This document shows, piece by piece, positions 35,455 through 64,000 of a DNA stretch of 64,000 nt; position 1 is the first letter of the stretch, and each line of letters starts with the position of its first letter. Below the pieces are notes generated by a model. It ran no database searches and had not been told where the DNA came from. It saw only the letters and a program-made list of their open reading frames with translations. The stretch lies in the NCBI RefSeq assembly GCF_006345805.1, contig NC_043001.1, positions 30,814,001 to 30,878,000 of the forward strand, in the 5' to 3' direction. Made by a program: the position numbers and the translations under genes. The DNA comes from Octopus sinensis (Eukaryota).

Positions 35455-35652
35455 AGTTTGAAATCAATAGACTTGGACAGCATGGAACCTCTTAACCACA
35501 AGCGTCTGAATGAAAACCATTATTTACACATCTTTGAGAAGTATGGTTTGAAAATTATGGCTGAACCAAATGACCTCTTTGAACCCTATCGTTTAGTTGT
35601 GGATGGTTTTGTTGGAGACGAGCAGTGTCAAGAAATGATAAACCTGGTAACT
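35455..35652 (+). CDS. P3H: Prolyl 3-hydroxylase-like gene, exon starting dioxygenase-like domain 1
   Basis: Pyrimidine tract + ttcaag acceptor, ACT|gtaagt donor, phase 0-0. Translates SLKSID...FEKYGLKIMAEPNDLFEPYRLVVDGFVGDEQCQEMINLVT, resembling P3H1 YEGISLTMNSKLLNGSQRVVMDGVISDHECQELQRLTN. The exact acceptor (35455 vs 35457) is uncertain. Confidence 0.85.
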
Positions 35653-35874
35653 GTAAGTATTTTAGTTGAACATTTTTTACCTTAACCCTTTTGTTATCAT
35701 ATTTCTGTTGAGATGTTTTCTGTGTTTCTTTCAATTAATTTTAAATACAACAAAGAATTTAGTAAAATAACTTAGTTATCATTAAGCTAGTGTTAGGAAC
35801 ATAAATTGTGACTAAGGTTTGGTGGAAGATTTTAATTCAAAACTTATGCAAATGAGACATTTGTACTACAGAGC

Positions 35875-36015
35875 CATCACAAAATTATCACAAAAAACTG
35901 CTACTCAGTGTTTCATGTTCCAGTTTGTCGGAGAGGTGTGAATAAGAATCACAACTGTCTAACGAACAGGAAGGTGAAACTCTAAGTAGCAGTTTTTTGT
36001 GATGTTTTTGTGATG
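35875..36015. repeat. Fold-back element with two decayed hammerhead motifs
   Basis: TCACAAAAAACTGCTACTCAGTGTTTCA pairs with TGAAACTCTAAGTAGCAGTTTTTTGTGA. + arm reads AACUGU-CUAACGA...GAAA-CUCUAAG-UA-GCAGUU. Confidence 0.65.
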
Positions 36016-36406
36016 TTTTTGCAGTTTTAATGATAAAGTGTGTGTGTGTGTGTATATATATGTATATATATATATATATATACAGGGCGGCGAGCTGGCA
36101 GAAACGTTAGCACGCCGGGCGAAATACGTAGCCGTATTTTCGTCTGTCGTTACATTCTGAGTTCAAATTCCGCCGAGGTCGACTTTGCCTTTCATCCTTT
36201 CGGGGTCGATAAATTAAGTACCAGTTTCGCACTGGGGTCGATGTAATCGACTTAATCCCTTTGTCTGTCTTTGTTTGTCCTCTCTATGTTTAGCCCCTTG
36301 TGGGTAGTAAAGAAATATATATATATATATATACACTGTTGTGTCTGGAGAGTCACTTACTTTTAGTGCCTTATAATTCAACACACGCACCAGTAAAATT
36401 TATAAA

Positions 36407-37720
36407 TCATCATCATCATCATCATCGTTTAATGTCCTTTTTCCATGCTAGCATGGGTTGGACGGTTCGACTGGGTCTGGGAAGCCAGGAGGCTGCACCA
36501 GGCTCCAGTCTGATCTGACAGTGTTTGTACAGCTAGATGCCCTTCCTAACGCCAACCACTCCGTGAGTGTAGTGGTGCTAGGGGAGGCTGGCAACAGCCA
36601 TGATTGGTTGGTGCTTTTTATGTGCCACCAGCACAGGTATCCAACTATAATTTCCATTTGATTTTTATTTGATGTTGATGTACTTGACTCAATAGGTCTC
36701 CTCAAGCACAGCAGGTCGCCCTACGATCCAAGGTAAGCACAGCAGGCCGTTCTGCGATCCAAGGTACTTTGGATGGGCTGGGGCTGCTGTGTGAAGCTGG
36801 TGCAGGAAACAGCCATGAACTCACGTTATTTGTTGGGTCTTCGTAGTCACAGCATATCTCCAGAGATCTCGGTCTTTTGTCATTGCCTCTGTGAGGCCCA
36901 ACATTCGAAGGTCATGCTTGACCACCTCATCCCATGTCTTCCTAGGTCTACCTCTACCCCGGATTCCTTCAACTGTTTGGGAGTGGCACTTCTTCACACA
37001 TCTCTCTTTATCCATCCGTTGTACATGACCATACCAGCACAAACATCTCTCTTGCATGCCACATCCGATGCTTCTTATGTCCAGCATTTCTCTCAGGGCA
37101 CTTACACTCTGTTGTGTGTGCACACTGACATTACACATCCTGTGGGTCATACTAGCTTCATTTCTTTCAAGCCTATGCGTGTCCTCCGCATTCACAGCCC
37201 ATGTTTCACTACCGTGAAGCACGGCAGTTTGCACACATGCGTCTTACAATCTACCTTTCACTCTGAGTGAGAGACCCTTTGTCATCAGTAGGGGTAGAAG
37301 CTTTTTAAACTTTATCCAGGCTATTCGTATTCTAGTGGTGACACCCTCTGAGCACCCACCTCCACTACTAACTTGGTCACCTAGGTAGTGGAAACTATCA
37401 ACTACTTCTAGTTTCGCCCCCTGGAGTGTGATGGAATCTGTTTTCTGAGTATCTGTAGTGTCTATTGCCTCTGTGCATCTGCAGCACACAAAAGCTATCT
37501 TCTCGGTTAATTTTCCTTTGATGTTGCTGCACCTCTTATGCGTCCATAGCTTACACTGGGTACATATTATCGAGTTTCTACCTACACCTTTTCTACAGAT
37601 CAAGCAGGGCTACCTACCTGAGGGTGTGTGTGATACGTTCACCATCCTACTTACTATAACTTTGGTCTTTGCTACATTGACTCTAAGGCCTTTTGATTCT
37701 AAACCTAGCTTCCACACACC
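36407..37720 (-). mobile_element. 5'-truncated RTE-clade LINE with 3' UTR and (GAT)n tail
   Basis: GLRVNVAKTKV, PHD-like ICRKGVGRNSIICTQCKLWTHKRC, FHYLGD, LHGSETWA, RGRGRPRKTW and DRDLWR, followed by the dispersed tail sequence. Confidence 0.92.
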
Positions 37721-38166
37721 TATTGGATTGACTAATATATATATATATCTATATATATATATATATATTGGAAGGTTTGGAGATGATGTACAGGTATTAT
37801 ATATTAGAAGAAATGAGGTAATCAGAAGATCGGATGGTTTATATTTACAGAGATTTATTTATATATTACATTTTTTATATATATATCATATCACTTAGAT
37901 CATTAGCGCTTTCTCCCATTCTAGTGGGGTTTTCAAATCAAACTGAGTTCCTTTGTGGGGAATTTTAATCATTTTATAGAATTTCGTAGTGGTGGGGAGG
38001 AATATAAGACAGTACAAGAGGATGAGATGGATGAGGAGAAAGTGAGAGAGAGAGAACATGTGTGTATGTGTGTGTGTGTGTGTGTGTATTTATATATATA
38101 TAAATTTAGAGAGAAAGAGAAAGCTAGATGCATGTTCTATATTTTTTATTTTTGTTATATTTTCAG

Positions 38167-38220
38167 CTTCAGAAAACTGTTGATGGTATGAAAACACTCA
38201 CTGTGCCAGAAACTGTTGAA
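38167..38220 (+). CDS. P3H: P3H-like exon (54 nt, LQKTVDGMKTLTVPETVE)
   Basis: tttcag acceptor, GAA|gtaagt donor, phase 0-0, in frame with neighbours. Positional equivalent of the GDGY...GLTV exon but shortened. Confidence 0.75.
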
Positions 38221-38628
38221 GTAAGTTGCATTATTAATTAATTTAACCATTTCAGCAACACATTTGTCTGAAACTTCCATACTTCCTGGAATATGCATAA
38301 TTAGACAGAGCTGGTTTTTGTATTTCTCTAATTCATTCTCACATTTGTTTCACTTATCTTAATATTAGTTTGTTTGATTTAAGGCGGTAAAAATGCTAAA
38401 GTGCTAGACTAAATGACCAGCAATGTTTAATTTCATCCCGAAGTGTTCCAAGTTCAAATTCTGGACTCAGTTTTGTCTTCTCATGACATTAAATAAAATT
38501 GCATATATATATATATATATATCATCATCATCATTGTTTAATGTCCACTTTCCATGCTAGCATGGGTTGGTCCAACCCATATATGTGTGTGTGTGTGTGT
38601 GAATACATATAAAAATAAACAAACACAC

Positions 38629-38660
<32 letters not shown>

Positions 38661-39137
38661 AACACACACACAAACACACATATACATATACATAAATATA
38701 TATATATATATATGGTAAGAGGCTTGCTTACCAACCACATGGTTCCAGGTTCAATCCCACTGTGTGGCACCTTTGGCAAGTGTCTTCTGCTATAGCCTTG
38801 GGCTAACCAAAGCCTTGTGAATGGATTTGGTAAATGGAAACTTGTTGGTGTGTTTACGTCCCTGTAACTTAGCGGTTCGGCAAAGAGACCAATAGAATAA
38901 GTTACTAGGCTTACAAAGAATAAGTCCCGGGGTCGATTTCTTTGACTAAAGGTGGTGCTCCAGCATGGCCACAGTCAAATGACTGAAACAAATAAAAGAA
39001 TATATATATAAAATAACTGAATGACTCTGATTTCTGGTACTCAGAGTTGCTAGTTTTCAGTCATTAAAGAATACATTCCATTTGTACTGAGTAACTTATC
39101 ACTTCTGGTGAATTAACACATACACACCACACACACT

Positions 39138-39191
<54 letters not shown>

Positions 39192-39656
39192 TGTGTGTTT
39201 GTCATGTAAAAAACACCCACTATTCTCTTGGAGTGGTTGGCGTTAGGAAGGGGGCATCCAGCTGTGGAAATCTTGCCAGATCAGATTGGAGCCTGGTGCA
39301 GCCTCCTGGTTTTCTAGTCTTCAGTCAAACCATCCAACCCATGCCAGCATGGAAAGTGGATGTTAAACGATGACGATGCTGCTGCTGCTGATGATATATA
39401 CATGGAAGTAGGGATCAAATGAATCAGCTATACTGCTCTCTCATATGTATCTGATAGGGGCTCTTGCCAAACATCACTAGTGTTGGTGGCATGTAAAAAA
39501 ACATCCAATACATACTATAAAGTGGGTGGTATTAATAAGGGCACCCAACTGTTGAAATCAAGCTGAAGGTGACATTGGAGCTTCATTAAACTGTTCGACC
39601 CTTGCCAACATGGGAAATGGATGTTAGAAGAACAAGTTGTAGTAGTAGTAGTAGTA

Positions 39657-39687
<31 letters not shown>

Positions 39688-40358
39688 TGTTGTTGTTGTA
39701 GTTATATAACTAAATAATCCTTAGCCTAGAGTTTTATTCAATAGTTTTATTTTTTCATCATCATCATCGTTTAATGTCTGCTTTCCATGCTAGCATAGGT
39801 TGGACGATTTTGACTGAGGGCTGGTGAACCAGATGGCTGCACCAGACTCCAATCTTGGTCTGGCAGAGTTTCTACAGCTTGATGCATTCCTAATGCCAAC
39901 CACTCCGAGAGTGTAGTGGGTGCTTTTACATGCCACCGGCACAGGGGCCAGTCAGGTGGTACTGGCAATGACCTCGCTCGAATCTTTTTACACATACCAC
40001 CAGCACAGGTGCCAGTAAGGCAATGCCGTTAACGATCACGCTCGAATGGTGCCTTTTACGTGCCCACCGGCACGGAAGCCAATTAGCTGCTCTGGCAACG
40101 ATCACACTCGGATGGTGCTCTTGGCACCCTACTAGCACGGGCATAAGTGCCAGTAAGGCGATGCTGGTAACGATCACACTTGAATGGTGCCTTTTACGTG
40201 CCCACTGGCACGGAAGCCAGCTAGCTGCTCTGTCAACGATCACACTCATATGGTGCTTTTTGCACCCCACTAGCACGGATGCCAGTCATCGAATTTGATT
40301 TTAGTCATTGAATTTGATTTTCATTTTATGATTTTTAAAAAATTTTATCTTTTGACAG

Positions 40359-40503
40359 AAAATGAATGTTTCTGAAGACTACAATGTTGGATTACGCTTG
40401 TTGCTTCGGATGAGTGGTATTGCAAAACAGTTCATCCAGAAATACTTAAATCACAATATTTACCATTATTCCACAAAGGTTATTTGCAAAGATAAATGGA
40501 ATG
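40359..40503 (+). CDS. P3H: P3H-like exon (KMNVSEDY...IAKQFIQKYLNHNIYHYSTKVICKDKWN)
   Basis: tttgacag acceptor, G|gtaaga donor, phase 0-1. Resembles P3H1 KVRRIMESYFRLDTPLYFSYSHLVCR. Confidence 0.85.
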
Positions 40504-42015
40504 GTAAGAATAGACTATATTATTGTTGTTAATCTTATTTTCATAATATCATTAAGTAAACATTTGTATTTTCAAATTTATTATTTTTACTGAGGAGAGT
40601 AAATGATCTCTGGATATTTTGACTTTTTCTCCTTTCTCTTTTTGTGAAAGATGTTAAATAAAGGTTGATATGTATCTTTGTCAGAGGAGTTAGTCCTTTC
40701 CTAAACCTTTGTTTATATAATTCCCAAAAATATTTTACATTTTATTTTTAAACCTTTAGCATCCAAATTATTCTGTGTAACACTTATTTATTCACAGTGT
40801 TATGAATAATCATATGTTATCTCATAGCTTTGAGATTTCATTGATGTGCTTGCTTATTTTTCAGAATGACATTGTAGGGTATTGTGAGAAGCCTGATCAG
40901 GCCAGTCTGAACATAAAAACAAGGTAGAATATTTGTGTTGGATATAGCTTGTCTAAATGCTAAAGGGTTGTGAAAATGCCTGACGTAATGGTTAGGGATA
41001 TTTGGTTCCTGGAAATATGCTGTGCTTGAGAAGACCCGGCAAGCCAAGTGAGACCATAACCTCGTGGCCTATGCCAGGGGTGTATCCAGCCCACTTATGT
41101 GTACCTTTCCTTCATTGGACACTAAACTCTGCTTGCGAAGACCTGTTGAGGCAAGTGAAATTGAAATCAAAATCAAATTCGCTGACTGGCATCTGTGCTA
41201 GTGGAGTGCTAAGAGCACCATCCGAGCGTGATTGTTGCCAGAGCAGCTAACTAGTTTCCATGCTGGTGGCCCGTAAAAAGCACCATTTGAGTGTGATCGT
41301 TACCAGCATCGCCTTACTGGCACATTGTGCCAGTGGCACATGAAAAAGACATTCGAGCGAGGTCATTGCCATTGCTGCTGGACTAGCTCCTGTGCAGGTA
41401 GCACATTAAAGGCACTATTTGAGCGTGGCCGTTGCCAGTACCACCTGACTGGCCCTCGTGTCAGTGGCATGTAAAAGCACCAGCTACACTCTCAGAGTGG
41501 TTCGTGTTAGGAAGTGCATCCAGCTGTAGAAACTCTACCAGATCAAGATTGGAGCCTGGTGCAGCCATCTGGTTCACCAGTCCTCAGTCAAATCGTCCAA
41601 CCCATACTAGCATGGAAAGCGGACGTTAAACAATGATGATGATGATGATGATGATTGTAAGGATGTGAATTCAATTCCCGGCAGCAGGGCACATGTTGTT
41701 CTTGGACAAGACACTTTATTTCACATTGCTCCAGCCCACACAGCTGGCAAAACGAGCTGTGCCTATAATTCAAATGGTCAACCATGCCACATTCTGTGTC
41801 ACTGAGAACTACTTTAAGGTATGTGTATTTGTGGAGTACTCAGCCACTTGCAAGTTAATTTCATGAGCAGGCTGTTCTATTGATCAAAGCTTTTGTTATA
41901 AAATGTTCTCTACATGTTATACAAGATGTTGCATGATTCCCCAGACTAAGGCAACTCATTGAAATTTATCCAAACTTAATTTTGTTTAATATTGAATTCT
42001 CATTTTTATTTTCAG

Positions 42016-42079
42016 GGCATTGTTTCCTCACTGAGTCTGGTAAATGTCTTTCAGAATTTGTTCCAGAAGGGAGTTTTCA
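42016..42079 (+). CDS. P3H: P3H-like exon (GHCFLTESGKCLSEFVPEGSFQ)
   Basis: ttttcag acceptor, CA|gttagt donor, phase 1-2. Keeps the two Cys of P3H1 DNCILNAETLVCVKE but has no HxD motif. Confidence 0.8.
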
Positions 42080-42419
42080 GTTAGTAATCATTTGATTTTT
42101 ATTCTAGATGTTGTTTGTAATTTTTGATAGTTTTCAGTTTGGCATTGAGTAAAAGCATCATTTTCAAAACATAATTATGTAATGCATCACAAGCTATGTT
42201 TCAACACATGAGTCAAACCTTCCATTTAAGAATCCTAAAGATAAACATCTCTAGAACAGGGGAGGTCAGCAACTTTCCCTTGCTAGTCTGGCGTCCACAG
42301 ACTAGTTTTGTGGTATTTGCCTCTTATTAATGTAGAGTTGCTGAATCCAGCAGGCATCGCTGCTGACTGATTGTTCGAAGGATTATTTACCTAAATTCAG
42401 TAGGTAAATATATACTCTC

Positions 42420-42822
42420 TCTTTTACTCTTTTACTTGTTTCAGTCATTTGACTGTGGCCATGCTGGAGCACCGCCTTTAATCGAGTAACTCGACCCCGG
42501 GACTTATTCTTTTGTACGCCCAGTACTTATTCTATCGGTCTCTTTTGCCGAACCGCTAAGTAACGGGGACATAAACACACCAGCATCAGTTGTCAGGCGA
42601 TGCTAGGGGGACAGACGCACAAACACACACACACGCATATATATATATATACATATATACGACGGGCTTCTTTCAGTTTCCGTCTACCAAATCCACTCAC
42701 AAGGCATTGGTCGGCCCGAGGCTATAGTAGAAGATACTTGCCCAAGGTGCCACGCAATGGGACTGAACCCAGAACCATGTGGTTGGTAAGCAAGCTACTT
42801 ACCACACAGCCACTCCTGCGCC
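42420..42822 (-). mobile_element. tRNA-derived SINE (GGAGTGGCTGTGTGGTAAG family), young copy
   Basis: Full-length and CpG-rich; closely matches the + copy at 45609-46016. Confidence 0.88.
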
Positions 42823-42854
42823 TGTATATATATATATAAATATATATTTATTCC

Positions 42855-43033
42855 AGATTTAATTGCGAGCTACTATAAGTTTCATGTCTCTGATAATTCA
42901 ATAGATAGATGAGATTGTATTGCATAAATGATTTCTGAATGAATGCTCAGTAAATCATGGCATGCCATAGAAGCTCATCCAACTACTGTATTATTAGAGG
43001 CATGAAATTTATTGTAGCTTGCATTTAAATCCT
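42855..43033. repeat. Fold-back element with about 42-bp arms
   Basis: GATTTAATTGCGAGCTACTATAAGTTTCATGTCTCTGATAAT pairs imperfectly with ATTATTAGAGGCATGAAATTTATTGTAGCTTGCATTTAAATC. The arms carry only a GAAAC...GUA half-motif. Confidence 0.7.
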
Positions 43034-43111
43034 GTGTATATTAGATGATATCTATCTCTCCCTGGGTGGAGTATTTTCTTTTTGTTGATTCCACCAGTAA
43101 CAGAACAGAAC

Positions 43112-43156
<45 letters not shown>

Positions 43157-43224
43157 TGTAATTTAGGGTATCTACAAGATGCCGCCATGCTGAAAATAGC
43201 TGCCATTATATATATATATTTATA

Positions 43225-43258
<34 letters not shown>

Positions 43259-43530
43259 TTGACAATTAGTAAACATTTAATCATTAAAGTAGAAAATAAT
43301 CGTCAGAAAAGTTATTCATCTTCACTTTTACAAATATACACTCCTGCACCAAGTATTCTCTATATACATACATTTTACACCAACAAGTTATGTATCGAAG
43401 AAGAAACTTTGGAAAATTTTCTACAGATTTCTATTTATTTTTGTTTGTAAGGTTTTTATAATTTTTTTTGCTTTTTTCTATGATTGACACTTCTGAGATT
43501 ACGTGTTCCCATTTGTTTTTCTATTTCCAG

Positions 43531-43594
43531 GAGTATAACACATCTTTCAAGCATTCCTAAAGCTGGTGGGAGTTATTTTGCTAAGCCTGAAGAG
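43531..43594 (+). CDS. P3H: P3H-like exon (SITHLSSIPKAGGSYFAKPEE)
   Basis: tttccag acceptor, GAG|gtagtg donor, phase 2-0. Equivalent to P3H1 SAILYLNGDFDGGNFYF. Confidence 0.8.
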
Positions 43595-44772
43595 GTAGTG
43601 TTGTTATTTTCTTTTCATTTCTTTTAGTTCTTTCTAATCATTAAACTTCCTGAGTATAACTGTTTACATTGGGCCCTAGTATTTACTTATTGACTGATAC
43701 TTACTTTATTATCATCAAATGGAGGAAAAGCAAAACGAACCTAAGTGGGGTTTGAACTCAGAATGTAAAGGGATGCCACTGGACACTATAAATCAATCAG
43801 AGTTGAACTCTATAGATATGGTAATTGAGCCAGATAAATGTGTTTGAGATATAAGTGAAACTGTCTCTTATATATTTCTTTCCTGCCCACAAGGAGCTAA
43901 ACATAGAGGGGACAAACAAACGGATTAAGTCGATTACATCGACCCCAAGGCGGTGAGCTGGCAGAAACATTAGCACACCGGGCGAAATGCTTAGCGGTAT
44001 TGCGTCTGTCGTTGCGTTCTGAGTTCAAATTCCGCCGAGGTCGACTTTGCCTTTCATCCTTTCGGGGTCGATAAATTAAGTACCAGTTACGCACTGGGGT
44101 CGATGTAATCGACTTAATCCGTTTGTCTGTCCTTGTTTGTCCCCTCTATGTTTAGCCCCTTGTGGGCAATAAAGAAACAGATTACATCGACCCCAATGCG
44201 AAACTGGTACTTTATTTATCGACCCCGAAAGGATGAAAGGCAAAGTCGACCTCGGCGGAATTTGAACTCAGACAAAATACCGCTAAGCATTTCGCCCGGC
44301 GTGCTAACGTTTCTGCCAGCTCGCTGCCATATTCTCTTATATTTTTGTCCAGGGTCTCGTGGTTTCCAAAGTGTGGAGCTATGTCAAAGAGCTAATGATG
44401 CTTTTGGTCAAACCATCCATCATATCAATGATCAAAATCAGTCACTAATTATAATTCATTTATTGATATTGATGGTGGTAAGTCTCATAGCCCACTGAAT
44501 CACAAGCATCACTGAAGCCTTCCTTGTCATGCAACCTGGCTGAGTGCATTCTTCTCCATTAAGTTGAATGCTGTTTAACTTAGCCCCTGCAAGTTCGCAA
44601 ATCATTTCCCAATTATTGTGCTCAATTTGTTCATGTATTGTACCTGCATACTATCTATTTATTGACTAATTAGGATACACTGAGTGGTTATAGACATGAT
44701 GTTGAGTAACCCAGTACTCAATTGACTCTGCTAGCTATTTGGTTTTAATTAATTTTTTCTTCACTGTTATAG

Positions 44773-45123
44773 ATAATTATTCGACCAAGGTGTGGCAGAA
44801 TGGTCCTCTTCAGGTCAACAGATCCACTTGGTGTGAAACCTTTCAACGAATCAGAAATGGAAAGATGTGTTTTGTGGAATGTTTTTGGAAATGACCCCAT
44901 GCAAAATGAAATCGACCATTTAGATGCTCTGATCCTTCTTAGGAACATGGACCAGCAGATTATGTTGAATACTTCTGAAAGCCGAAGCCAAGTATTAAAT
45001 GATCTATTAAATCAAGGAGTTGAAGTGGTCTCTACTGAGAAAGAGATGCTGGGCAAAGAAAGATTTATTGCCGATGGGTTGGCATCGAAAGCTGAATGTG
45101 AAACTCTCATTGATTTAGCTAAT
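44773..45123 (+). CDS. P3H: P3H-like exon: end of domain 1, linker, start of domain 2
   Basis: ttatag acceptor, AAT|gtaagt donor, 351 nt, phase 0-0. RPRCGRMVLFRSTDPLGVKPF...ERC...DP matches P3H QPQCGRAVGFSSGTENPHGVKAV...QRC...LDP. QGVEVV...GKERFIADGLASKAECETLIDLAN then restarts the domain. Confidence 0.92.
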
Positions 45124-45181
45124 GTAAGTTTGTTCAGTATTTGTCTTTCCTTATTCCTGTTTCATTGTATAGAAATTGCTG

Positions 45182-45342
45182 AATAGATATTTGATGATAA
45201 TGTATTGGATATTTGATACAATAGATAACAATAATAGATATTTGATGATATTGTATTGGGAGTCAACAATAATGAATATTTGATATAACGGATAAGAATA
45301 ATAGATATTTGATGATAGTGTAATGAGAGTCAACAATAATGG
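45182..45342. repeat. Degenerate minisatellite
   Basis: AATAGATATTTGATGATA occurs three times, with GAGTCAACAATAATG sub-repeats. Confidence 0.7.
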
Positions 45343-45608
45343 AAGGGCCTCAAACTAAATGCCTTGTAAGAGAGTGTACACAAGTATACTTGATGTAGTA
45401 AACTTTAAGATTTAATCAATTGAAATTATCACCCTACTGAAGAAAATGTTTAGCTCTCTTAATTTTAGCTGATAAAAAGGCAGGGGAAATAACCTTGAAA
45501 ATTTTGTTAAAATAAAATATAGAAAATGATGGGGAATGTATGAGCTTTAACAGTGCAGTGACAACCAGGTACATATTTCAGTTTTATTACTCCTCACAAC
45601 ATAGTGAG

Positions 45609-46016
45609 GTGCAGGAGTGGCTGTGTGGTAAGTAGCTTGCTTACCAACCACATGGTTTGGGGTTCAGTCCCACTGCGTGGCACCTTGGGCAAGTGTCTTC
45701 TACTATAGCCTCGGGCCGACCAAAGCCTTGTGAGTGGATTTGGTAGACGGAAACTGAAAGAAGCCTGTCGTATATATGTATATATATATATATATGTGCG
45801 TGTGTGTGTGTCTGTGTTTGTCCCCCTAGCATTGCTTGACAACCGATGCTGGTGTGTTTATGTCCCCGTTACTTAGCGGTTCGGCAAAAGAGACAGATAG
45901 AATAAGTACTGGGCTTACAAAAGAATAAGTCCCGGGGTCGAGTTGCTCGATTAAAGGCGGTGCTCTAGCATGGCCGCAGTCAAATGACTGAAACAAGTGA
46001 AAGAGAGAAAGAGAGA
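45609..46016 (+). mobile_element. tRNA-derived SINE (GGAGTGGCTGTGTGGTAAG family), young copy
   Basis: Full-length head to tail. Confidence 0.88.
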
Positions 46017-46169
46017 ATAGTCTAAAACCAATACTGGATCTTAGAATGAGATTGGAAATGTTTGGTATTTTGTGAATGAGTCATTATAAATTATGATAGG
46101 TGAAAACAAATTTAATGTTTAAAACATAGAATAGTTAAAGTATATAAAAGGTCTCTCTCTCTCCCTTTG

Positions 46170-47640
46170 GTCGCTACATAAACAACTGTATAGGTGCCAC
46201 CTCCCTCTCCCACGAACAACTCTGCCACTTCATCTCTTTCCTCTCTAAGTTTCACCCTTCTCTCCAATTTACCTCTACCGTCTCTAACACCTCAGTTAAC
46301 TTCCTAGATATCTCTCTTACCATTGACCTCCCCTCCCACTTGTCACCACCTCCACCTTCTTCAAACACGCAAATTCCCACCTCTACCTCAACTTCTCCTC
46401 CTCCCACACCAAACGGACCATCCCCTACTCCCAGTTCCTCTGCCTCCGACACTTGTGCAGCTGGGACCAGGATTTCAAGACCCAGTCCCAATACCTTGTC
46501 TGCCTGTTCATGCATCGAGGATACCCCTCAACCCTTCTCCAAACCGCCCTTGCTCGCACTCGTCTAATCGATCGCACCACCGCCCTTTATCCTTCCCCAC
46601 ACCAATCCCCTAACTGCACCCCCTTTCCCCTCCTTTTCCACACCTCCACACTACCCCTTCGTTGGAGGATCCTACGAACCTTCCATTGTCTCCAGCTAGA
46701 TCCCACCACCCACACCATTTTCCCCCACATACATGGGCATATACACATGCACATGCACACAGGAACGCACATATACTCCACACACACACACATGCATATA
46801 CACACACACAGACGCATGCATACACACACAAAACACACACACACAACATATACATACACTCACACACATACATACATACTTCAAACTGCCTGTCAAACAC
46901 CTTTCTACCAACCTATTTCTTTACTACCCACAAGGGGCTAAACACAGAGAGGACAAACAAGGACAGACATAGGTATTAAGTCGATTACATCGACCCCAGT
47001 GCGTAGCTGGTACTTAATTTATCGACCCCGAAAGGATGAAAGGCAAAGTCGACCTCGGCGGAATTTGAACTCACAACGTAACGCAGACGAAATACCGCTA
47101 AGCATTTCCCCCGGCGTGTTAACGTTTCTGCCAGCTCGCCACCTTTCTACCAACCATTCCTCTACACACATGTGAAGAGACACACAACTACACAAAAGAC
47201 CACCACTCCTGATACCATGCTGCTGAATCCCTCCAACATTAAGAGACACAAAGTTCACTCACACATACACATATAAATAGCCAAAACCATATGCACACCA
47301 TACACACAACATATATACACACACGTACATAGATTTGCATGCATGCACATACCCACACATACCTCCTTCTCTTACACTCTTCTGTCTTAGAAAGAACTTT
47401 TTCTTCACCCATTCCCTTCTGGTCATTTCAAAATGTAACCACGTGAATTGTTGGCGATTTTCTTCCTCTGTCTTCCTTTCCATTGAACTTTCCACTGTTT
47501 CTGAAGAAGAGCATTGCTCAGAACGTTAAACCACCTCTCTTTCCTTCCCTGAGCATCTGCTAATACTTTACATGTACAACATTCTGGTGTTGTTGTTTTT
47601 TGTGTTTTACCATTGCACACTGGTAAAACATTGTACACTG
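46170..47640 (+). mobile_element. Penelope-like retroelement remnant interrupted by microsatellite and SINE
   Basis: FHPSLQFT...VNFLDISL RT motif and CSWDQDF...RGYP...LQLDPTTHTIFP thumb region. 3' hammerhead-like GUUU-CUGAAGA-AGAGCAUUGCUC-AGAA-CG-UU-AAAC at 47497-47531. Confidence 0.78.
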
Positions 47641-47760
47641 CTGTCTAAATTAATTTTCTGTATACACATTAGCAATTTGCAAAATCATCCATAGATTTTT
47701 ATGGTGAAACGAAATGTACTGACAGAAAATTAAATCTGGAATCTGCTGAAGTCAAGCCAG

Positions 47761-47812
47761 TCCTTACTGATGAGGCAACGGAAATTGCTGAAACTGAACA
47801 GTCAGTATAGGG
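47761..47812 (+). ncRNA. Hammerhead-like motif, intact core but defective stem I
   Basis: CUGAUGA-GGCAA-CGGAAA-UUGCU-GAAA-CUG-AA-CAG-UC; the flanks (UCCUUA / AGUAUAGGG) do not pair in register. Confidence 0.5.
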
Positions 47813-48302
47813 AATTCTTGATCAGTATTTTCTGGTAATTATATTCCCTGTCAGTATATATGTCTACAATTGTGTGCTTTGACTACAGTATTAGAGCATT
47901 TTAGCTCTTATTTCTAGCAATGTAGGTATTTCTAACACCCTAGCAGGAGTGGCTATGTGGTAAGAAGCTTTCTTCCCAACTACATGGTTCTGGGTTCAGT
48001 ACCACTTTGTGCAAATGTCTTCTACTATAGCATCAGGTTGACCAAAGCCTTGTGAATGGATTTGGTAGACAGAAGCCTGTCATGTGTATATATATATATA
48101 GTGAGAATTTACAAAAAAACAAAAGACGAAGACGGGTGTGTAAACAACATACAGATGTATTAGTTTAATGCTCAGGAAGTGAGAAAGTCTTTTATGTTTC
48201 GAGCCTATGCTCTTCAACAGAACGCAACACAAAAATAAACAGGGAGAGAAAATAGAAAAGGGTTTAGTGGCTAGCAATCTATCATGGTGAATGTATATAT
48301 AT

Positions 48303-48367
<65 letters not shown>

Positions 48368-50960
48368 TCATCATCATTTGTGTGTCTGTGTTTGTCTCCC
48401 CTACCATCACTTGACAACTGATGTTGGTGTGTTTATTCCCCCCCCCCCATAATTTAGCAGTTTGGCAAAAGAGACCGATAGAATAAGTACTAGGCTTACA
48501 AAGAATAAGTCCTCCAGCATGGCCACAGTCAAATGACTGAAACAAGTAAAAGAATAAAAAAATATATATACATAGCTTTGTGTCTTGGTACCCATTAAAA
48601 ATCACATCATTGTCAACTTTGCTTATTATCTCTCAATTGTTGATAAAATTAGCACAAAAGATATGCTGGAATGGATTTAATCAACTCTGCTTCTCTCATT
48701 ATTATTTAGGAATATAATTATATTAGGAATATAATGAAGCTGGTTATATCTGTTTGTTACAATAATGACAAAGCATAATAGTGGTATATTCACTTGTGAT
48801 TACTCTAACATCAGGGAATCACAAAAACTATAAATGATTAACCTGAATATTTAAGTCACAGTCTTTTAGTATTTAGCAATCTGTCTCTTTGTAAAGAGAA
48901 AAAAGTTGCACAAGGGCCTCCAACTATAAAGGAAAATTCCAGTTTTTGAACACCCCTTCACTCACAAATGGTTGAAAGAGGTTCACTTAGCATACTTTTA
49001 TGAGGAGTTGGTAGCAGAAATGGTCGAGTTCTGAAATAAATCCCTTATATTTAGTTAATAGCCCTTTACGTTTTGAGTTTAAATCTTGTCAGAATCAAAT
49101 GCTCCTTTTACTTTTCAGGGTCGATAAGATAAATACCACTAAAAAAATCAGAGGTAGATTTCATTGTTCCTCTTTCCCAAGAATTTGTTGCAGTATACCA
49201 AAAATCAGAAATGAATATTGTTATTTATTTGTAGTTATTGTTCTTTTTATTTTATAATTAATTAAAACATCTTATTAATCAATTTTGAATGAAATATGTT
49301 TGCTTATTACTATTGCTATAGGATCAATAATGACTAGATCTTTGGATGACAATAAATTCTGTTCATTCCCTCTAGGTCTTCCTTTCATTAGGGCCACATA
49401 TCCTTGTTAATCAGAAGCTTTGAATTTATGGCGTCAATCATCTTAACCAAATTTTGTTTGAGCCATCTTACATTAAAATCAAGATATTTTATTTTTACCA
49501 TTTTCTGATTTTTCTTTCGTGTTTTCTGTTTTTCATCCTCAATACATGGGTTGGATAGTTTCTTGTCTCATGTGTTGACATTCTTATACTCTTGGAGCAA
49601 TTGTTTTTGCAGCTGGATGCTCTTTCTTCCACTAGCCACTCAACTGTGAAGTAAGAGTGGAATTTATTGTCAACTTGCAGGACAGAGAGGCAAATAGTCA
49701 TGCCTTGTCCAAGGGTACAAAACAGTGGCTGTACTAATGAATGAACTTATGACCATATGGTCATTAGTCCAAAACAAGTCACAGCCATCTGTTACATTTT
49801 ATTTTATTTTTATTCTATTTAAGTTGTAAATATCAATATTATCACACCTTTATTATTCCAGTGATTTTTAGCTACATTCTTCTGTTGACATCATTCATGT
49901 TTTACCATTTTATCATTGATTACTTGTATCACTCATTTACTTCTGCTATATTCATAAATCTGCTTCTATATTGAATTCAACCTCTCTTGCTCTTCTCTAC
50001 TCTTATAGATTTATTAAATATTCTAGTTTACTATATAAGACCTACCTCATTACATATACACACAAAGTTATTGCACATACTCTTGTTTTGATATAGCTAG
50101 AAGAGGAGCTCAGCATTTATTAATACACAACATATACACCTAGCCTCTTGCTTCAACACAACCTCTAATACATTATATTTGATTTCTGGACTGGGCTGTA
50201 TGTTGATTCCTGGGCTGTGTGTTGTGTTTTGTGCAAAACGCTTTATTTCATATTGTTCCAGTTCACTCAGCTGTAGAAATGAGTTGTGATGTCACTGGTG
50301 CCCAGCTGTGTTGGCTTTTGCCTTTGCCCTTGGGTAACATTGGTGGTGTGAAGAGGGGAGCCTGGTATGCATTGGTGACTGCTGGTCTTCCATAAACAAT
50401 CTTGCTCAGAGTTCTGCTTCAGAGGATAACTTTCTAGGTGCAATACCATGGTCATTCATGACTGAAGAAGGTTTTTACCCTTTACACACACACACGCGCG
50501 CGCGCACACACACATGCATGCATTAGTTGCTTCAGAATTGATTAAAAAGAAGTACCTCTCATAAAGTGAGAAATATGTTGATTTAATTAACTTCATAATT
50601 CCTCTGTAAATTTGGATTTTGTAATGTAAGAATAATATCATCCTTATTGATATTATCAGCATTAAGGTGGTGAGTTTGTAGAATCCGTAGCCCATCAGAC
50701 AAAATTCTTAGCAGCATTTTTCTGGCACTTTACGTTTTGAGCTCAAATCCTGTTGAGGTTAACCTTGCCTTTTGAGTTGATAAAATAAGTAGCAGTTATC
50801 AACTAACACCCACCTCACCCCTAAAATTGCTAGCCTTGTGCCTAAATTCAAAACCATTCTTATTATCTTATCTATTTGTTTAATTCTAATTCCAACACTA
50901 ACTTCAGTTTTCAGTCTGCTAATGTAATATTTTTAAAACTGATGCTTTTATTTCTTACAG

Positions 50961-51056
50961 GCAGGGGGCTCGTTAGGGGATGGCTATGACAGAGAAGCAT
51001 CTCCCCATTCAGCTAATGAGTATTTTGTGGGCCTGAGTATCCCAGGTGCTATCGAG
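50961..51056 (+). CDS. P3H: P3H-like domain 2 exon, variant A (AGGSLGDGYDREASPHSANEYFVGLSIPGAIE)
   Basis: ttcttacag acceptor, GAG|gtatta donor, 96 nt, phase 0-0. Carries the P3H motif GDGY-x4-SPH-x3-E-x-F-x-G. Too short for the ORF track. Confidence 0.88.
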
Positions 51057-53726
51057 GTATTAGCAACGTTCTTTCATAAAGCTGAATGGCTTTATTTTCA
51101 ATTAATGTCTATGTACTCAAAAATGTGAATTCATTTTTTTTTTTTTTAGATTATAAAATGTTCTAAAGTCACGGCTTCTTTAATTCCTTTTATATTAGAT
51201 GGTTGCAATGATCAGAAAAATGAGAAACATTGCAGACAGCTTCTTCCCTAACCTTGAAAATGTTTTAAAAATAATAAAACAATGAACAGCAATTCCCTTA
51301 TTCATATATGTTTGTCAGCTGGTCCAAGATTGGCTTCTGTGTTTGGAAAAATAACTATTTTTGCATCAACAGGAACTTTGTTTTCAGCATGCAACTGTAA
51401 AACATCTGTCTTCTGCCTGGTCAATGCAATCAGCTATTTAATTAAAGTATTGGTTGGAAACCAAGTGAAAATTTGTTAGAACATTTTATGAAAATCTTTA
51501 CAGATTTTTTTTTTTTTTTGCTGTCCATTTAAAAAAAATTCATTGTATTCATTTAATTTCTTCCCTGCATAATGGCATATTTGTATTTTACACACTCCTT
51601 ACTTCCCGGCTTCTTTTTTCCATTCTTCTCCTAAATATTTAGTGAATGATCATTCATAGCTTTTTTTTTTTTATACTGAAATGCATTTTTCTTAAAGACT
51701 ATATACATTACCTGTAGTATGTAAAAATAAGTATTTAGGTTTAAAAAAAAACATTCAATATTTTATGTACCATATAAATTTAGTTAACTTATTTCAAACA
51801 TTTTATTTGATATGCACCATGTTTTTTCATAGAAGTGTTTGAGTAGGGTGATATTTTTATTTAGAGTATTGTATTTTTGTGATGCATGGTTGTGCTGGAA
51901 TGTTTCATAATAATGTACATTCATTATCATGTAAATGTAATCTTATATAGAATATGTTAACTGATTTCTGATTGATTTTAGTTTAATAGATTTAAAAACG
52001 TAAAAACGTATTTATCTTAGCATTGTTGAAGATTCAATAGATTTAGATTAATTTTATATTATGGGGTGGGAGATTATTAACTTTGTGGGGGCATATTGTA
52101 TATGAATAAATGTGGTATATTTATGCACTGATTCTACCTACACTTGTGACATTCAGTTGTACGATTTGTAGTTATTATTATAGAGAAAAAGCTCTTTTGG
52201 TTTTGGTATATAAAGAAATTATTTACTGGCTTTAAACAGATATAGTGTCATTTTATTAAACAAGAAATTTAAGATTTTGAATATTGATTTGGTTTGGCAG
52301 TTTTATGGCTATTCACTCCGTCCGACAGATCAACCATGTATTATGGCTGAAATAATATCTCACCTTGAAAATATAACTAAAGCTGTTATTTACTCACTTG
52401 TGAAGCAACAAAATACAAGTAGATCAGGATATGGATTTTTGATTCATGTCAAATTGACTTTCCTTTGATGCTTGTGATTTGATCTGCCATCGATGGTTGC
52501 TGCGGACTAGTTTTAAACATATTTTTATAACTATAAGAGAATAGTAATGGGAAATATAATCTCTATAAAACAAAATAACTTAGAATAACATCAATGGTTG
52601 TAACTATATAATCTGGTCTTGCTTACAAAGATATAAAACCAAGACAATAATATATATATACATATGCTATTGCATGAAACTGACTTTACTATGAGAATAT
52701 CAAATGAAATTATTTGTAAATTCTTATTTTTGCATTACAAATTGAAGAGACTCTCACAGCTTTAAAGAACTAAAAGAAACATAGCAATATGGCTACATCA
52801 ATAAGATTCTCTCTAATTTTCTGTTTCATTTCTATTGATTTTTTTTTTTACCTTTTTCACTCTCTATCGATCTATGTATTTCTGTATATCTATCAATTGA
52901 TCATCTGACTGACCAATTGGTCATTCATTCAACCAATGATATTTTCAGTTCACTTCCAGCTTCTGGTGATTAATATCCAAAATTATATACATATATATAT
53001 AACAAACTTTCACCCTTTAGTAGCTTTGGTAAATTAACTCAATTATGCTCCAGACTCACTAAATGCTTGTTACTCACAATAATTTATAGCATTTAACATT
53101 TGCAGCTCTGTGTGTGCGTTTTATTTTACTTACTTTATAGATGCTATTGATAAATTAGCATTTGTGATGTATATTTTGTGTGTGTTTATGTAATATATAT
53201 GTATATATAGATAGTGTCTGTACATGTATTATTTCTATTAGAGAACTATAGCAATGATTGTTTGTGTGAATATGTTTTGATTTCAAGATTTGGACTGATA
53301 TACAGTTAATATTGTCATACAAAGAAAACAGCTCATTTATTCTGATTTTTTATATCTAGATTTCTGTGTTATTGTTTGTTCATCCTAAACACACGCAAAC
53401 ATACATAAATGCATCCCAAAACAAAAACATGCTCACATGTGTGTGTTAAAAGTTTTGTTCAGTGTTATGCGGTTTGCAAAAATGGAACAAATATTTAACA
53501 TACAAATGAGTAAGGCACCCACTCACTCCACTTATAAATCTTATTGGCAAATGTAAATATACATACAGGTTGTTACAAATGTATAAAAAAATCTTATCTT
53601 TTATGCTTATTTTTCATTTTCATTTATTCCAACGTTTATACAAAAATAACTTTTGACAAAACAAAATGTGTGTAAAACATTTCATGTTTTTAATAATATT
53701 AACTGAATTAACATATATATATTTGC

Positions 53727-53757
<31 letters not shown>

Positions 53758-54960
53758 GTTATTTTATTTTATTATATCTTATTTTATTTTCCAGAAAAAG
53801 TATGTTTTCACTTACTGTTCATGCATAAATATTTAATTAATATTTTTAGCATTGCAGCAAAAATACCATTGTCCCATCAAGTTTCTTTACTAATATATGA
53901 TGTAGCTCCAGTTTAAAAATGCTTTTGTTTTTATTAATCTATTTTTATTATTATTTACATTTTACATTAATCTTCTTCTTTTTTTATGCTACAATATACA
54001 TGGATTATAGCTTATCAAATTAACTGACAACTGCTTTTGTTTCTTTCCTAAAATCTTTCTCTTTATATTATATGTTGCATATCATCAATATTTAGTGCTC
54101 AATGTGCTTAAAGTATATGTGCAAAAGCTGCGCTTCGGATATGGTTAGTAAAACTTGTGTGTGGGGCTTTAAAACAGATGTCTATTGCTTAGATATTTAT
54201 GTATATTTGTGTCATGAATAGATATTTTACTGATACAATATGTTGTGATCAGTATTCACACACATATGTTTATATATATATATATATGTATATATATGTA
54301 TGTGTGTATATATATATGTGTATATATATAGGATTTCTTATATATCTAAGGGAGGTAACAATCTCTAATCATAAACCTTAAGAAAATAAGTAGCTATGAT
54401 CAATATTACTGAGTAATCATAGCCATTAAAGAAATGCCGCTTCTGTTAAAATTCACAGTTTTTAATGTTTTCACATTTTCTCCTCCTTTCTTTCTCTCAC
54501 ACACACATACATACATGCATATGCATATATGAACATGCATACAAACAGATACATATGCACACCTATCCTGTACTATATAATATGATGCTTTTCTAGTTTT
54601 AGCTTTGAAACAAAACGATGCATTATAACTTTCATCGTTGATGTCAAAGGAATGAACTCCAGTTAAATTTCAAATTAAAGTTAATGTTTTCTGTTCATAG
54701 AAAGTCTGCCATATACTGTTTGGGAAAGCAAATGTGATATTTCTGGAAATACGGGACTTTTCTAGACTCTATTATCTTGGTCACATGTCTACTTTAGAGG
54801 AAAGAATTAAACTGTAATTGAAAGAATGTCTCTATGTCTGTGCGCACGTGTGTGTGTATGAGCATATGTATAAATATATGTAATGTGTGTATATATGTAT
54901 AAGTCTATGTGTGTGTGTGTGAATATATATATATATACTCACACACACAAACACACATAT

Positions 54961-55210
54961 ATATTTTAAGAAGTTAAATGTTATGATCAATCGTAGAGTA
55001 ACCATTGGTTTTGCAACTATAAAGTGCTTAGTAGTATAGGCAACTCGTCAGACACAAATGGTCAAAGGCACATTTCCTCCAGTTGTAGAGAGGTTATGCA
55101 CCTTTGGCCATTTGCATCTGGTGAGTCACCTATCCTGCTAAGTGTCTTATATGTGTGAAACCAATGGTCACTGTATGCCTTGTCATAACATTTAACTTCC
55201 TAAAAGATAT
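54961..55210. repeat. Diverged ~250-bp fold-back element with a hammerhead relic in each arm
   Basis: GAAGTTAAATGTTATGA pairs with TCATAACATTTAACTTC, plus three further paired blocks. - arm: CUGACGA...AAAA-CCAAUGG-UU. + arm: CUGGUGA...GAAA-CCAAUGG-UC. Confidence 0.75.
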
Positions 55211-55234
55211 ATTACTGCTCTAATACTTTAGAAG

Positions 55235-55638
55235 CAGTGTTTCTCAACCAGGGTTCCTTGGAACCCAAGGGTTCTGCAAAAGGTTCCTCAGGGTTTGATG
55301 GGAAAGAGTGAGATAAGCTAATGCTAATTCCATGAACGTAATATACATGCACAACATATTTTGGTTATTGTAATATTGTACTATAGACATCATCCTATCT
55401 AACCTATTATGCTATCAAAAAAATATAACAACCAATGGGGATATATCTAGTGATGTCTGTAATTTATGGACTCCCTATATATATATATGAATATATATAT
55501 ATATATGCAATATTTATCATGTGAACTATGATGACAAAATATGAGAAAGATATGGTATATAATTTTTTTGTGCAGAGGTTCCTTGAGATGTAATTTATTG
55601 CAAGGGTTATGCAAGGGTGAAAAGGTTGAGAAACACTG
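55235..55638. mobile_element. hAT-like MITE
   Basis: Perfect 15-bp TIR CAGTGTTTCTCAACC; imperfect ~8-bp target duplication (CTTTAGAAG / CTTTAGAG). Confidence 0.8.
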
Positions 55639-55685
55639 CTTTAGAGTGTGCTTCTTTTTCAGTTAAGTTATATGAACTACTGATG

Positions 55686-57257: not shown

Positions 57258-57371
57258 GATGGATCTGTGCGTGGAGATGGTTACAAACATCAGCAAGGCA
57301 TACTTTCTTTAATTTCCCCACACACAAAGCATGAGCTGTTCCAAGGCCTCACTGTGGCTCGAGCAGCCAAG
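57258..57371 (+). CDS. P3H: P3H-like domain 2 exon, variant B (DGSVRGDGYKHQQGILSLISPHTKHELFQGLTVARAAK)
   Basis: catctag acceptor, AAG|gtttgt donor, 114 nt, phase 0-0. Matches P3H1 GDGYRGQTSPHTPNEKFYGVTVFKALK with a 6-residue insertion. Confidence 0.9.
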
Positions 57372-62559: not shown

Positions 62560-64000
62560 AGATAAATAAATAAATGGAGTTAAATGCAGGTGTTATTCAA
62601 ATCTTTTTACTTCCAACATATGTTTCAAAGAAAACATTGGTGTTATTCCAGAAGGAATAAAATGGTGTAAAACAATGCAATCTTCTCATCAGGGAAAGAA
62701 AGAAACCAAACACATCAATAAGACATTTTAATGGAATGTGATGACTGCAGATATGATGAAGGGAACACTAGCAAGTTTAAAAAAAAAAACTGTTAGTCGA
62801 TATAACGTCAAAGGTATTTTATGGAAAGAGAAGGAGGAGAAAAAAAGAAATTAGCAGAAAACAAATAGTGGAGAGATATAGAGCGATAGGTGAATAGGAA
62901 TAAAGCTTAAAGGCATGGAAGTGAAATGTAAGAAGACAGTCAAAGGTCGAATTTTATAGAATGGTAGAAATCATTTATAGAAACTAAAGGTATGTGTCTA
63001 CCAATGTTTGCAATGATAAATGTGTTCTATAAACATGATTACAAGAGGATTCTCTGAGAACAGGATGAAATACATTTCACTGTTACACAAAGATTTACCT
63101 TTATCATACAGAAAAGATATAGAGAGCATATTCCATTCCAAATCAAATTGTTTATTATGATCCTTTAGATACCAAATTAATTTACTAAGCCCAGTATTGT
63201 TATGCTTATTGATATGTCTAAATGTAGAGTAATGATTAGATATTCTTTTGGACAACTGAGATGAAAAACTACCTATACAAAAAAAGTCAGAACTAGAAGT
63301 AATTTTACATTGATAAATAGAGTTTCTAGTCTTAGAATTACTTCTAATAAAATGAATGTGATTGGAGTCAACATCAGAAACACTAACACTGCTGCTATTA
63401 TTACTTAAAGAATGGTTAGTGCTAGCAAAATCAATGTTACTATTTTCATTAAGTGGATTTGTATTTAATAACTTATTATTTTGTGAAGAGATGATTTGTG
63501 AAAAATTTTTTGTGTTAGAAAAACCTATCCTGATTCAGTGTGAATTAATAATCAAATAGTATCTTGAATTTCTTTGGAAATTCTTTTCTCTAGCTTCACG
63601 AAACTGGTGAGGGAGGTTGGATTTGATCTGCTTATCATATGGAATTATTAACCAAACAGTTTTGCTAGGACAAACCTTGTTATTAGGGTAGTTATCTTTA
63701 AATGGCCTTGATGTACCTTTATAAAAAAAAAAGGGGGTCCTAAATAACACTTATCTCCCTTATGCTGCAGAATTAGATTACTTGATTTGGTGTTGTTATT
63801 CGAAATAAAATTAATATTGTTATCACTTGATTTCATGTCCTGATTAATAGAGGTAGAATTAATGTCAATAGAGGAGAAAAATGCATTGTTTTACACCATT
63901 TTATTCCTTCTGGAATAATACCAATGTTTTCTTTGAAACATATGTTGGAAGTAAAAAGATTTTAATAACACCGGTATTTAACTTCATTTATTTATATATA
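62560..64000 (-). mobile_element. Penelope-like retroelement 3' part with GIY-YIG endonuclease and inverted terminal repeat
   Basis: SIYQCKI...FFCIG...SKRISNHYSTFRH...TGLSKLIWYLKD...LEWNML...SLC. 62565-62679 is repeated in inverted orientation at 63881-63996. Confidence 0.85.
62610..62698 (-). ncRNA. Type I hammerhead ribozyme motif (complete core) in Penelope-like terminal repeat
   Basis: UUUCC-CUGAUGA-GAAGA..CAUUG..UUAUUCC(UUCU)GGAAUAA..CAAUG..UCUUU-GAAA-CAUAUG-UU-GGAAG; palindromic stem III ACAUAUGU. Confidence 0.78.

Follow-up and report, generated by a model that had tools for sequence, protein, structure and literature searches.

A prolyl 3-hydroxylase gene of Octopus sinensis encodes two tandem dioxygenase domains, the first predicted to be folded and catalytically dead

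Dioxygenases that depend on Fe(II) and 2-oxoglutarate (2OG) need the motif HxD/E...H, and the vertebrate prolyl 3-hydroxylases (P3H) P3H1-3 carry a single domain of this kind. The subject here is a P3H gene of Octopus sinensis in which the domain occurs twice, a first copy (D1) without the iron ligands being followed by a complete second copy (D2). The gene runs through a stretch of 64,000 nucleotides (assembly GCF_006345805.1, contig NC_043001.1, positions 30,814,001 to 30,878,000, forward strand), called the window below; positions count from its first letter. In human P3H1 iron is held by H587, D589 and H659 and 2OG by R569 and R669, and four of the mutants at these residues are reported as inactive; in the human complex this single domain contacts CRTAP, a protein entirely without a dioxygenase domain, and faces cyclophilin B (PMC11381544). 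In mice, the H662A mutant of P3H1 has lost catalysis yet still forms the complex and acts as a chaperone (PMC3900401), and non-catalytic leprecan components are described as collagen chaperones or scaffolds (PMC7619536; PMC3900401). Tandem double-stranded beta-helix (DSBH) domains are a feature of OGFOD1/Tpa1, called the only 2OG oxygenases so built in a 2015 structural paper, according to which the C-terminal domain of OGFOD1 is metal-free and its origin by duplication and loss only a matter of speculation (PMC4396695).

The window covers the middle of the octopus leprecan/P3H gene, as located by a family search and by mapping of the protein onto the window and 160 kb of flanks. The exons for the leprecan tetratricopeptide repeat (TPR) region lie upstream, P3H-like matches are absent from the initial 35 kb of the window, all of it intron, and the encoded protein reads, from N to C, leprecan TPR, D1, D2, NEEL. 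Splicing of six exons at GT-AG borders (phases 0,0,1,2,0) yields a stop-free open reading frame (ORF) of 292 aa, which matches verbatim from residue 375 of the 956-aa protein P0001, annotated as octopus prolyl 3-hydroxylase 1. A preliminary description of this DNA had proposed this in-frame join and a restart of the domain in the sixth exon. Both proved right: the AG/GT ends are exact, RLVVDGF (35590) and QCQEMINL (35623) of D1 recur in exon 6 as RFIADGL (45061) and ECETLIDL (45094), and the similarity of D1 to D2 is far above chance, with a local score of 151 against a shuffle mean of 31.6 and maximum of 60 (500 shuffles) and 53 of 228 aligned residues identical. Each of the five D1 introns has a same-phase D2 counterpart (0,0,1,2,0) at a matching position, which argues for block duplication of the domain's exons in the genome; the internal exons measure 54/145/64/64 nt in D1 and 96 or 114/151/115/73 nt in D2. 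By the sequence features tested P0001 is a member of the leprecan family, with the TPR region (PF23557, 247.7 bits, E 2e-73; Z 29 to CRTAP, 8K0I_B) and a complete D2 motif set. The N-terminus is hydrophobic and the C-terminus NEEL, both judged by eye, and most relatives have KDEL/HDEL/HEEL-type ends. Octopus genome searches, in which few candidates were scored, matched exon 6 once and the end of D2 once, and showed no second leprecan gene.

D2 keeps the iron site and D1 has lost it. In octopus D2 the set HxD...H...R is complete (HLVCR, HADNC, YHGVK, QRC; PF13640, 46.5 bits), and all five human residues H587, D589, H659, R569 and R669 have equivalents; D1 has only that of R669, the strand VIII Arg for the C5-carboxylate of 2OG, within ERC. 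Its two large deletions have removed the GDGY...SPH lid loop and the DLSHPxHxD segment, the first visible as a second exon of 54 nt beside D2 counterparts of 96 and 114 nt and the second as the loss of 17 codons from exon D1-4, which retains both Cys of a C-x7-C hairpin. PRCGR (44785) is kept as well. The distal His is Leu in octopus (DPLGVK, 44821) and Val in Argonauta and cuttlefish, and at the R569 equivalent, the second 2OG Arg, coleoids have Lys or Asn and gastropods mostly Trp. No conserved substitute metal ligand is visible in the D1 sequences: the His of GHC, within the KWNGHCFL segment that an intron interrupts between exons 3 and 4, is Gln or Asn in other coleoids, and His residues near the old pocket are not conserved among the three coleoids. 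A six-frame scan of the D1 introns with a hidden Markov model (HMM) and motifs found no hidden intact HxD or GDGY exon. Of the features considered for an active dioxygenase, D1 taken by itself has the DSBH fold (predicted) and the strand VIII Arg, and lacks HxD/E and the distal His. D1 is predicted to be folded and catalytically dead, with iron binding in the canonical way ruled out.

The preliminary description had called most of this correctly. It listed the absence of HxD from D1 (the segment is deleted in alignments and in the profile comparison), Leu for the distal His, the deleted GDGY-SPH loop and the retention of the Cys residues, PxCGR and the RC Arg; it expected HxD...H in D2, which is now found as HADNC and YHGVK in exons beyond the window; and the replacement ligands that it named as a danger to its reading do not appear at the level of sequence. 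Its D2 comparators, SHPVHVDNCIL and NPHGVK, belong to human P3H1 (8K0E_A), the octopus having SHPIHADNCLL, DYHGVK and QRC, and the motif contrast itself holds. D2 does continue past the window, with four exons, and two more D2 exons inside the window had been overlooked. The forecast of two matches to 2OG-oxygenase profiles does not hold with Pfam: there is one PF13640 match (residues 800-885) and a sub-threshold PF13759 match at 545-581, and detection of both domains in the octopus protein needs a custom profile. Since Pfam gives one oxygenase match and the names say only P3H1 or P3H2, the dead domain is invisible in annotation. Compared profile to profile, mollusc D1s match the single domains of non-spiralians with probability 100 and E 2.5e-41.

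The tandem is not specific to octopus. A search with D1 and D2 gave 685 proteins, and a profile built from 59 single-domain matches calls two domains in 57 of the 120 homologues listed and one in the other 63. Named carriers are cephalopods, gastropods, bivalves, the brachiopod Lingula, the nemerteans Lineus and Tubulanus, and the annelids Capitella, Paralvinella and Dimorphilus; a second search added Helobdella and another two-domain protein. Deuterostomes, arthropods, Owenia, Watersipora, a partial Lottia model and others make up the single-domain group, and no named arthropod or deuterostome among the 120 has the tandem. For comparison of residues 53 tandem proteins were aligned, five redundant isoforms or partial models being dropped and P0009 added; many rows are congeners. 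D2 has HxD...H...R complete in 49 of the 53, the four exceptions being truncated or doubtful models, including those of Lingula and Capitella. HxD is present in only three of the 53 D1s (Lingula, Capitella and Paralvinella, each with the full D1 triad), the distal His in 46 (45 of 53 in another alignment) and the Arg in 52. Both domains of Paralvinella carry the full triad, though its D1 is strongly diverged. Most molluscs, nemerteans and the leech retain the distal His only, and coleoids no iron ligand. The pairing of a pseudoenzyme with an enzyme, as first suggested for this locus, is thus supported by a D1 without ligands and a complete D2, with the refinement that loss of the full triad is the coleoid state.

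It might be argued that the tandem is an artefact of assembly or annotation, two neighbouring genes or an upstream pseudogene read as one, an explanation that is now largely refuted and has hardly any probability left. The D1/D2 boundary lies within the single exon 6, exon 6 has a single match in the genome with no retrocopy seen, and 57 of the 120 homologues listed show the tandem. Exon 6 is present in 20 of 24 listed sequencing runs, which are guessed to be RNA, none of the 24 being recorded as such, a point in the artefact's favour. Contigs of four of these runs were compared over 38100-51400, a region that leaves exons 1 and 7b outside. In all four, exons 3 and 6 stand on one contig with 127 letters between the matched pieces, which is what remains of exon 3 together with exons 4 and 5, minus two letters already matched: the introns are skipped to the letter. 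This joining is read from contig spacing, the junction rows being absent from the 15 shown (320 more), and junctions 1-2 and 2-3 have no direct view in the contigs, which again leaves the artefact some room; MetaClust protein P0003 is without exon 2. The earlier reading was to be abandoned if transcripts did not join these exons, and the contigs link exons 3 to 6. Logan contigs of 3.5-6.3 kb encode full-length TPR-D1-D2 ORFs, whole proteins of 928 aa (P0005, P0012, P0013) that cluster with named cuttlefish fragments. The exonic differences in another organism's run, two synonymous and one non-synonymous, are too few for a dN/dS estimate.

D1 is predicted to have the DSBH fold. An AlphaFold2 model built on a 53-row alignment has a mean predicted local distance difference test score (pLDDT) of 84 and a predicted template modelling score (pTM) of 0.55; pLDDT in D1 is mostly 70-94, and D1 and D2 have the same order of helices and strands. 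In the full-length model, D2 is the part on which prolyl hydroxylases align (3GZE, Z 15.4). In a model of an isoform without most of D2, residues 404-594 of D1 align to the same structure with Z 13.6 and a root mean square deviation (rmsd) of 3.0 over 162 residues; 3GZE is a prolyl 4-hydroxylase (P4H). Identities to Argonauta are 74/74/89% for TPR/D1/D2, and to cuttlefish 52/57/80%, similar values that indicate a D1 as constrained as the TPR region. Across 42 mollusc D1s, 28 positions that are near-invariant in catalytic domains are lost and 22 fold positions are kept; the Trp beside the active site has gone, and the disulfide-type Cys pairs and the core remain.

On balance we lean towards a division of labour in which D2 is the likely collagen-hydroxylating unit and D1 a dead domain likely serving as a docking or chaperone module, a reading drawn from sequence, model and analogy. 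D2 would hydroxylate procollagen prolines in the endoplasmic reticulum (ER). D1 directly follows the TPR base, the position at which human P3H1 has its only dioxygenase domain, in contact with CRTAP and facing cyclophilin B, and would hold partners or nascent procollagen during hydroxylation by D2. Somewhat unlikely, though a serious contender, is a D1 that is a folded relic, which only spaces or stabilises TPR base and D2 and itself binds nothing. That most of the 22 kept positions are Cys, Gly or hydrophobic core would suit such a spacer, as would the pace of D1 in coleoids, about twice that of D2 (Octopus-Argonauta path 0.42 against 0.17), and its seeming absence from some lineages. A mere spacer fits less well with the retention of D1, its two shared deletions included, in each of the three mollusc classes sampled, with the R669-equivalent Arg kept in 44 of 44 mollusc D1s, and with charged residues conserved specifically in D1: a Glu in 41/42 mollusc D1s and 0/64 catalytic domains, an Arg in 41/42 and 8/64, and a second Glu in 41/42 and 4/64. 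The R669-equivalent Arg, with the distal His outside coleoids, could let D1 sense or regulate by weak binding of 2OG or metal, and their frequency beside the rarity of HxD speaks for such a sensor; the Leu or Val in place of the distal His in octopus, Argonauta and cuttlefish, the replaced R569 equivalent and the want of a conserved replacement ligand make it improbable.

A docking or chaperone role is favoured over both spacer and sensor, and several observations weigh against it. Identity of D1 between Octopus and non-cephalopods is no more than 21-32%, lower than for the TPR region; Octopus has Asn in place of the helix Glu, which is among the three D1-specific residues; and with lid loop and active-site Trp gone, the old pocket is an unlikely place for a peptide to bind. 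The pTM leaves domain orientation loose, and any partner of D1 is hypothetical. One search of the octopus genome, a weak one with five candidates scored, found no CRTAP/SC65-like gene, so the geometry of the human complex may not apply; the four genome matches to the leprecan TPR all lie upstream within this one locus. The Owenia and Watersipora models are single-domain, so these animals may do without D1, unless the models have missed it.

D2 has a peculiarity of its own. Exons 7a and 7b are homologous tandem internal exons, both phase 0/0 and both matching HMM positions 57-92, and each encodes the GDGY...SPH loop, with spacers of 4 and 10 residues. Among the D2 models of 53 relatives, eight have both forms, 11 the short only and 31 the long only, with three unclassified; there are three versions of the lid in Lingula isoforms and two in Helobdella, and the duplication extends to bivalves, gastropods and Paralvinella, three phyla in all. 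Exon 7a is supported by RefSeq isoform X4 and by the record of run X3, where a 153-nt contig has 7a with 29 and 28 flanking letters; given assembly words of 31 letters, 153 nt is the length of 6-7a-8 with 7a replacing 7b (155 if 7a came before 7b). Mutually exclusive splicing is likely from these sequences, and would supply D2 with two alternative lids; the inclusion of both exons in two of the four RefSeq models of the octopus gene, and of both forms in the eight models of relatives, counts against it. No docking or selector structure was seen near 7a and 7b, the longest 25 of 428 inverted-repeat pairs being microsatellites and one palindrome. By its position after the first helix of D2, the long loop encoded by 7a/7b likely corresponds to the finger-loop lid (beta2-beta3) that encloses the substrate in PHD2 and algal P4H (PMC4396695), an equivalence drawn from topology. 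Two differences are that the octopus loop comes in two exon versions and that it is deleted in mollusc D1. Around exon 7a, the bin 50976-51400 has contig depth in four of four runs (64 in X19) above that of exon 7a alone, possibly an alternative end or a nested transcript, and 51057-54300 is AT-rich with few of the repeats that are frequent elsewhere.

As to history, a single duplication near the base of Lophotrochozoa would have given two active domains, of which D1 later lost its activity repeatedly. Granted a single duplication, more than one death of D1 follows from the triad kept in Capitella and Paralvinella and missing in the leech, Dimorphilus, nemerteans and molluscs, an argument that leans on the relationships among these animals. 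Mollusc D1s and mollusc D2s form separate groups (SH-aLRT 99 and 98) in an 83-row domain tree, a quick search that left out 49 of 132 rows (near-duplicates, partial or doubtful models) and in which long branches meet. In a more careful tree of 39 rows every D1 and D2, with Owenia and Watersipora, separates from the domains of arthropods and deuterostomes (98/96), and mollusc D1s unite (99/99), with mollusc D2s and deeper forks left without resolution and the bootstrap not settled. A clade of all D1s appears in 12% of bootstrap trees, too few to show it, and is not rejected (p-AU 0.44); exon 3 alone gave no significant pairwise match to Lingula. The sequences may also reflect separate duplications in different lineages. 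A duplication confined to coleoids was rejected (p-AU 0.026). A bolder scheme, which we think distinctly unlikely, has an ancestral double-headed lophotrochozoan P3H whose D1 lost its activity separately in molluscs/nemerteans and in some annelids and took on the part of a built-in chaperone where CRTAP may be lacking, with the lid-swapping exon pair of D2 common to molluscs, brachiopod and annelids. If it were true, one gene would cover tasks that in vertebrates fall to P3H1, P3H2 and CRTAP separately.

The searches also brought up other multi-domain proteins and gene copies. P0139 (643 aa) begins with a hydrophobic stretch, lacks the TPR region, carries HxD...H...R in each of its two P3H domains and ends in RDEL. 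P0230 and P0253, likewise without TPR, have three to four dioxygenase domains in a chain, P3H-like and P4H-like in turn. An MMETSP transcript in the P0253 cluster makes an origin in microbial eukaryotes likely, and the two are another type of multi-domain 2OG oxygenase. In each of the freshwater mussels Sinanodonta (P0049/P0064) and Potamilus (P0066/P0100), two tandem-type P3H models share a contig and have near-consecutive locus numbers, a further duplication of the whole gene.

Exons of the octopus P3H gene in and beyond the window
Feature	Position	Strand	Content
Exon D1-1	35455..35652	+	acidic linker end and D1 start (RLVVDGF...QCQEMINLVT); phase 0/0; D1 HMM 62 bits
Exon D1-2	38167..38220	+	54 nt, shortened lid-loop exon without GDGY...SPH; D2 counterparts 96 and 114 nt
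Exon D1-3	40359..40503	+	long helix with D1-specific conserved Arg (GLRLLLR), strand I, first Cys; end phase 1
Exon D1-4	42016..42079	+	64 nt, against 115 nt in D2; phase 1/2
Exon D1-5	43531..43594	+	strands III-IV; phase 2/0
Exon 6, D1 part	44773..45123	+	PRCGR, DPLGVK (Leu for distal His), ERC with 2OG Arg, terminal helix
Exon 6 (same exon), D2 part	44773..45123	+	D2 start, RFIADGL...ECETLIDLAN
Exon 7a	50961..51056	+	short D2 lid-loop exon (GDGY-x4-SPH), 96 nt; likely alternative to 7b
Exon 7b	57258..57371	+	long D2 lid-loop exon (GDGY-x10-SPH), 114 nt
Remaining D2 (HADNC, YHGVK, RC, NEEL)	contig positions 30897971-30903955		four exons, 20-26 kb past window end

Elsewhere in the gene, RefSeq isoforms X1, X3 and X4 have a 28-residue TPR insert that is missing in X2, O. 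vulgaris, Argonauta and cuttlefish and may come from an exon that is spurious or of recent origin. At 5414-5899(+), 46327-46941(+) and 62998-63534(-) lie stop-free frames of 161-204 aa that resemble decayed retroelement fragments. A palindrome with 123-nt arms (54957-55212) adjoins an element with short terminal inverted repeats (about 55236-55642), which we take to be like a miniature inverted-repeat transposable element (MITE). An Rfam search gave no matches.

The literature searched holds no description of a tandem invertebrate P3H, and the preliminary concern that the architecture was already well described finds no basis there; some of the searches covered the top 10-20 of 133-1,202 papers, and sequences of this kind could be present in the supplementary alignments of PMC11381544 and PMC3900401. 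The architecture is likely undescribed before. It adds a second, independent case of a tandem 2OG oxygenase, with living intermediates (full D1 triad, distal His only, none), a series that lets one test how a pseudoenzyme domain arises and what keeps it. It bears on the question of what collagen P3H does by catalysis and what without it, and in the alternative lid exons nature offers an experiment on substrate choice in P3H.

Among known systems, human P3H1 (8K0E/8K0M) resembles the octopus protein in its TPR region, its Fe(II)/2OG residues and an ER-retention-type C-terminal tetrapeptide; the octopus protein differs in the extra metal-free domain between TPR and catalytic domain and in the duplicated lid exon. 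CRTAP, SC65 (P3H4) and dead P3H1 H662A are non-catalytic leprecan chaperones or scaffolds of collagen, as proposed for D1; set against CRTAP, the dead part in octopus is a dioxygenase fold fused in cis. OGFOD1/Tpa1/Ofd1, the top Foldseek matches after P3H1 and CRTAP over 550-610 columns, share the tandem of DSBH domains with one lacking the metal site. They are nevertheless a separate family, with 9-12% identity and uS12 rather than collagen as substrate. In OGFOD1/Tpa1 the two domains pack through minor beta-sheets; the Foldseek rmsd of the octopus model over both domains, 21-24 A, and the pTM given above are too loose to show the same packing. In OGFOD1/Tpa1 the catalytic domain comes first and the dead one second, the reverse of octopus; and only in the octopus-type P3H family do relatives with a full D1 triad survive. 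The octopus P3H works like an OGFOD1-type tandem but is not one.

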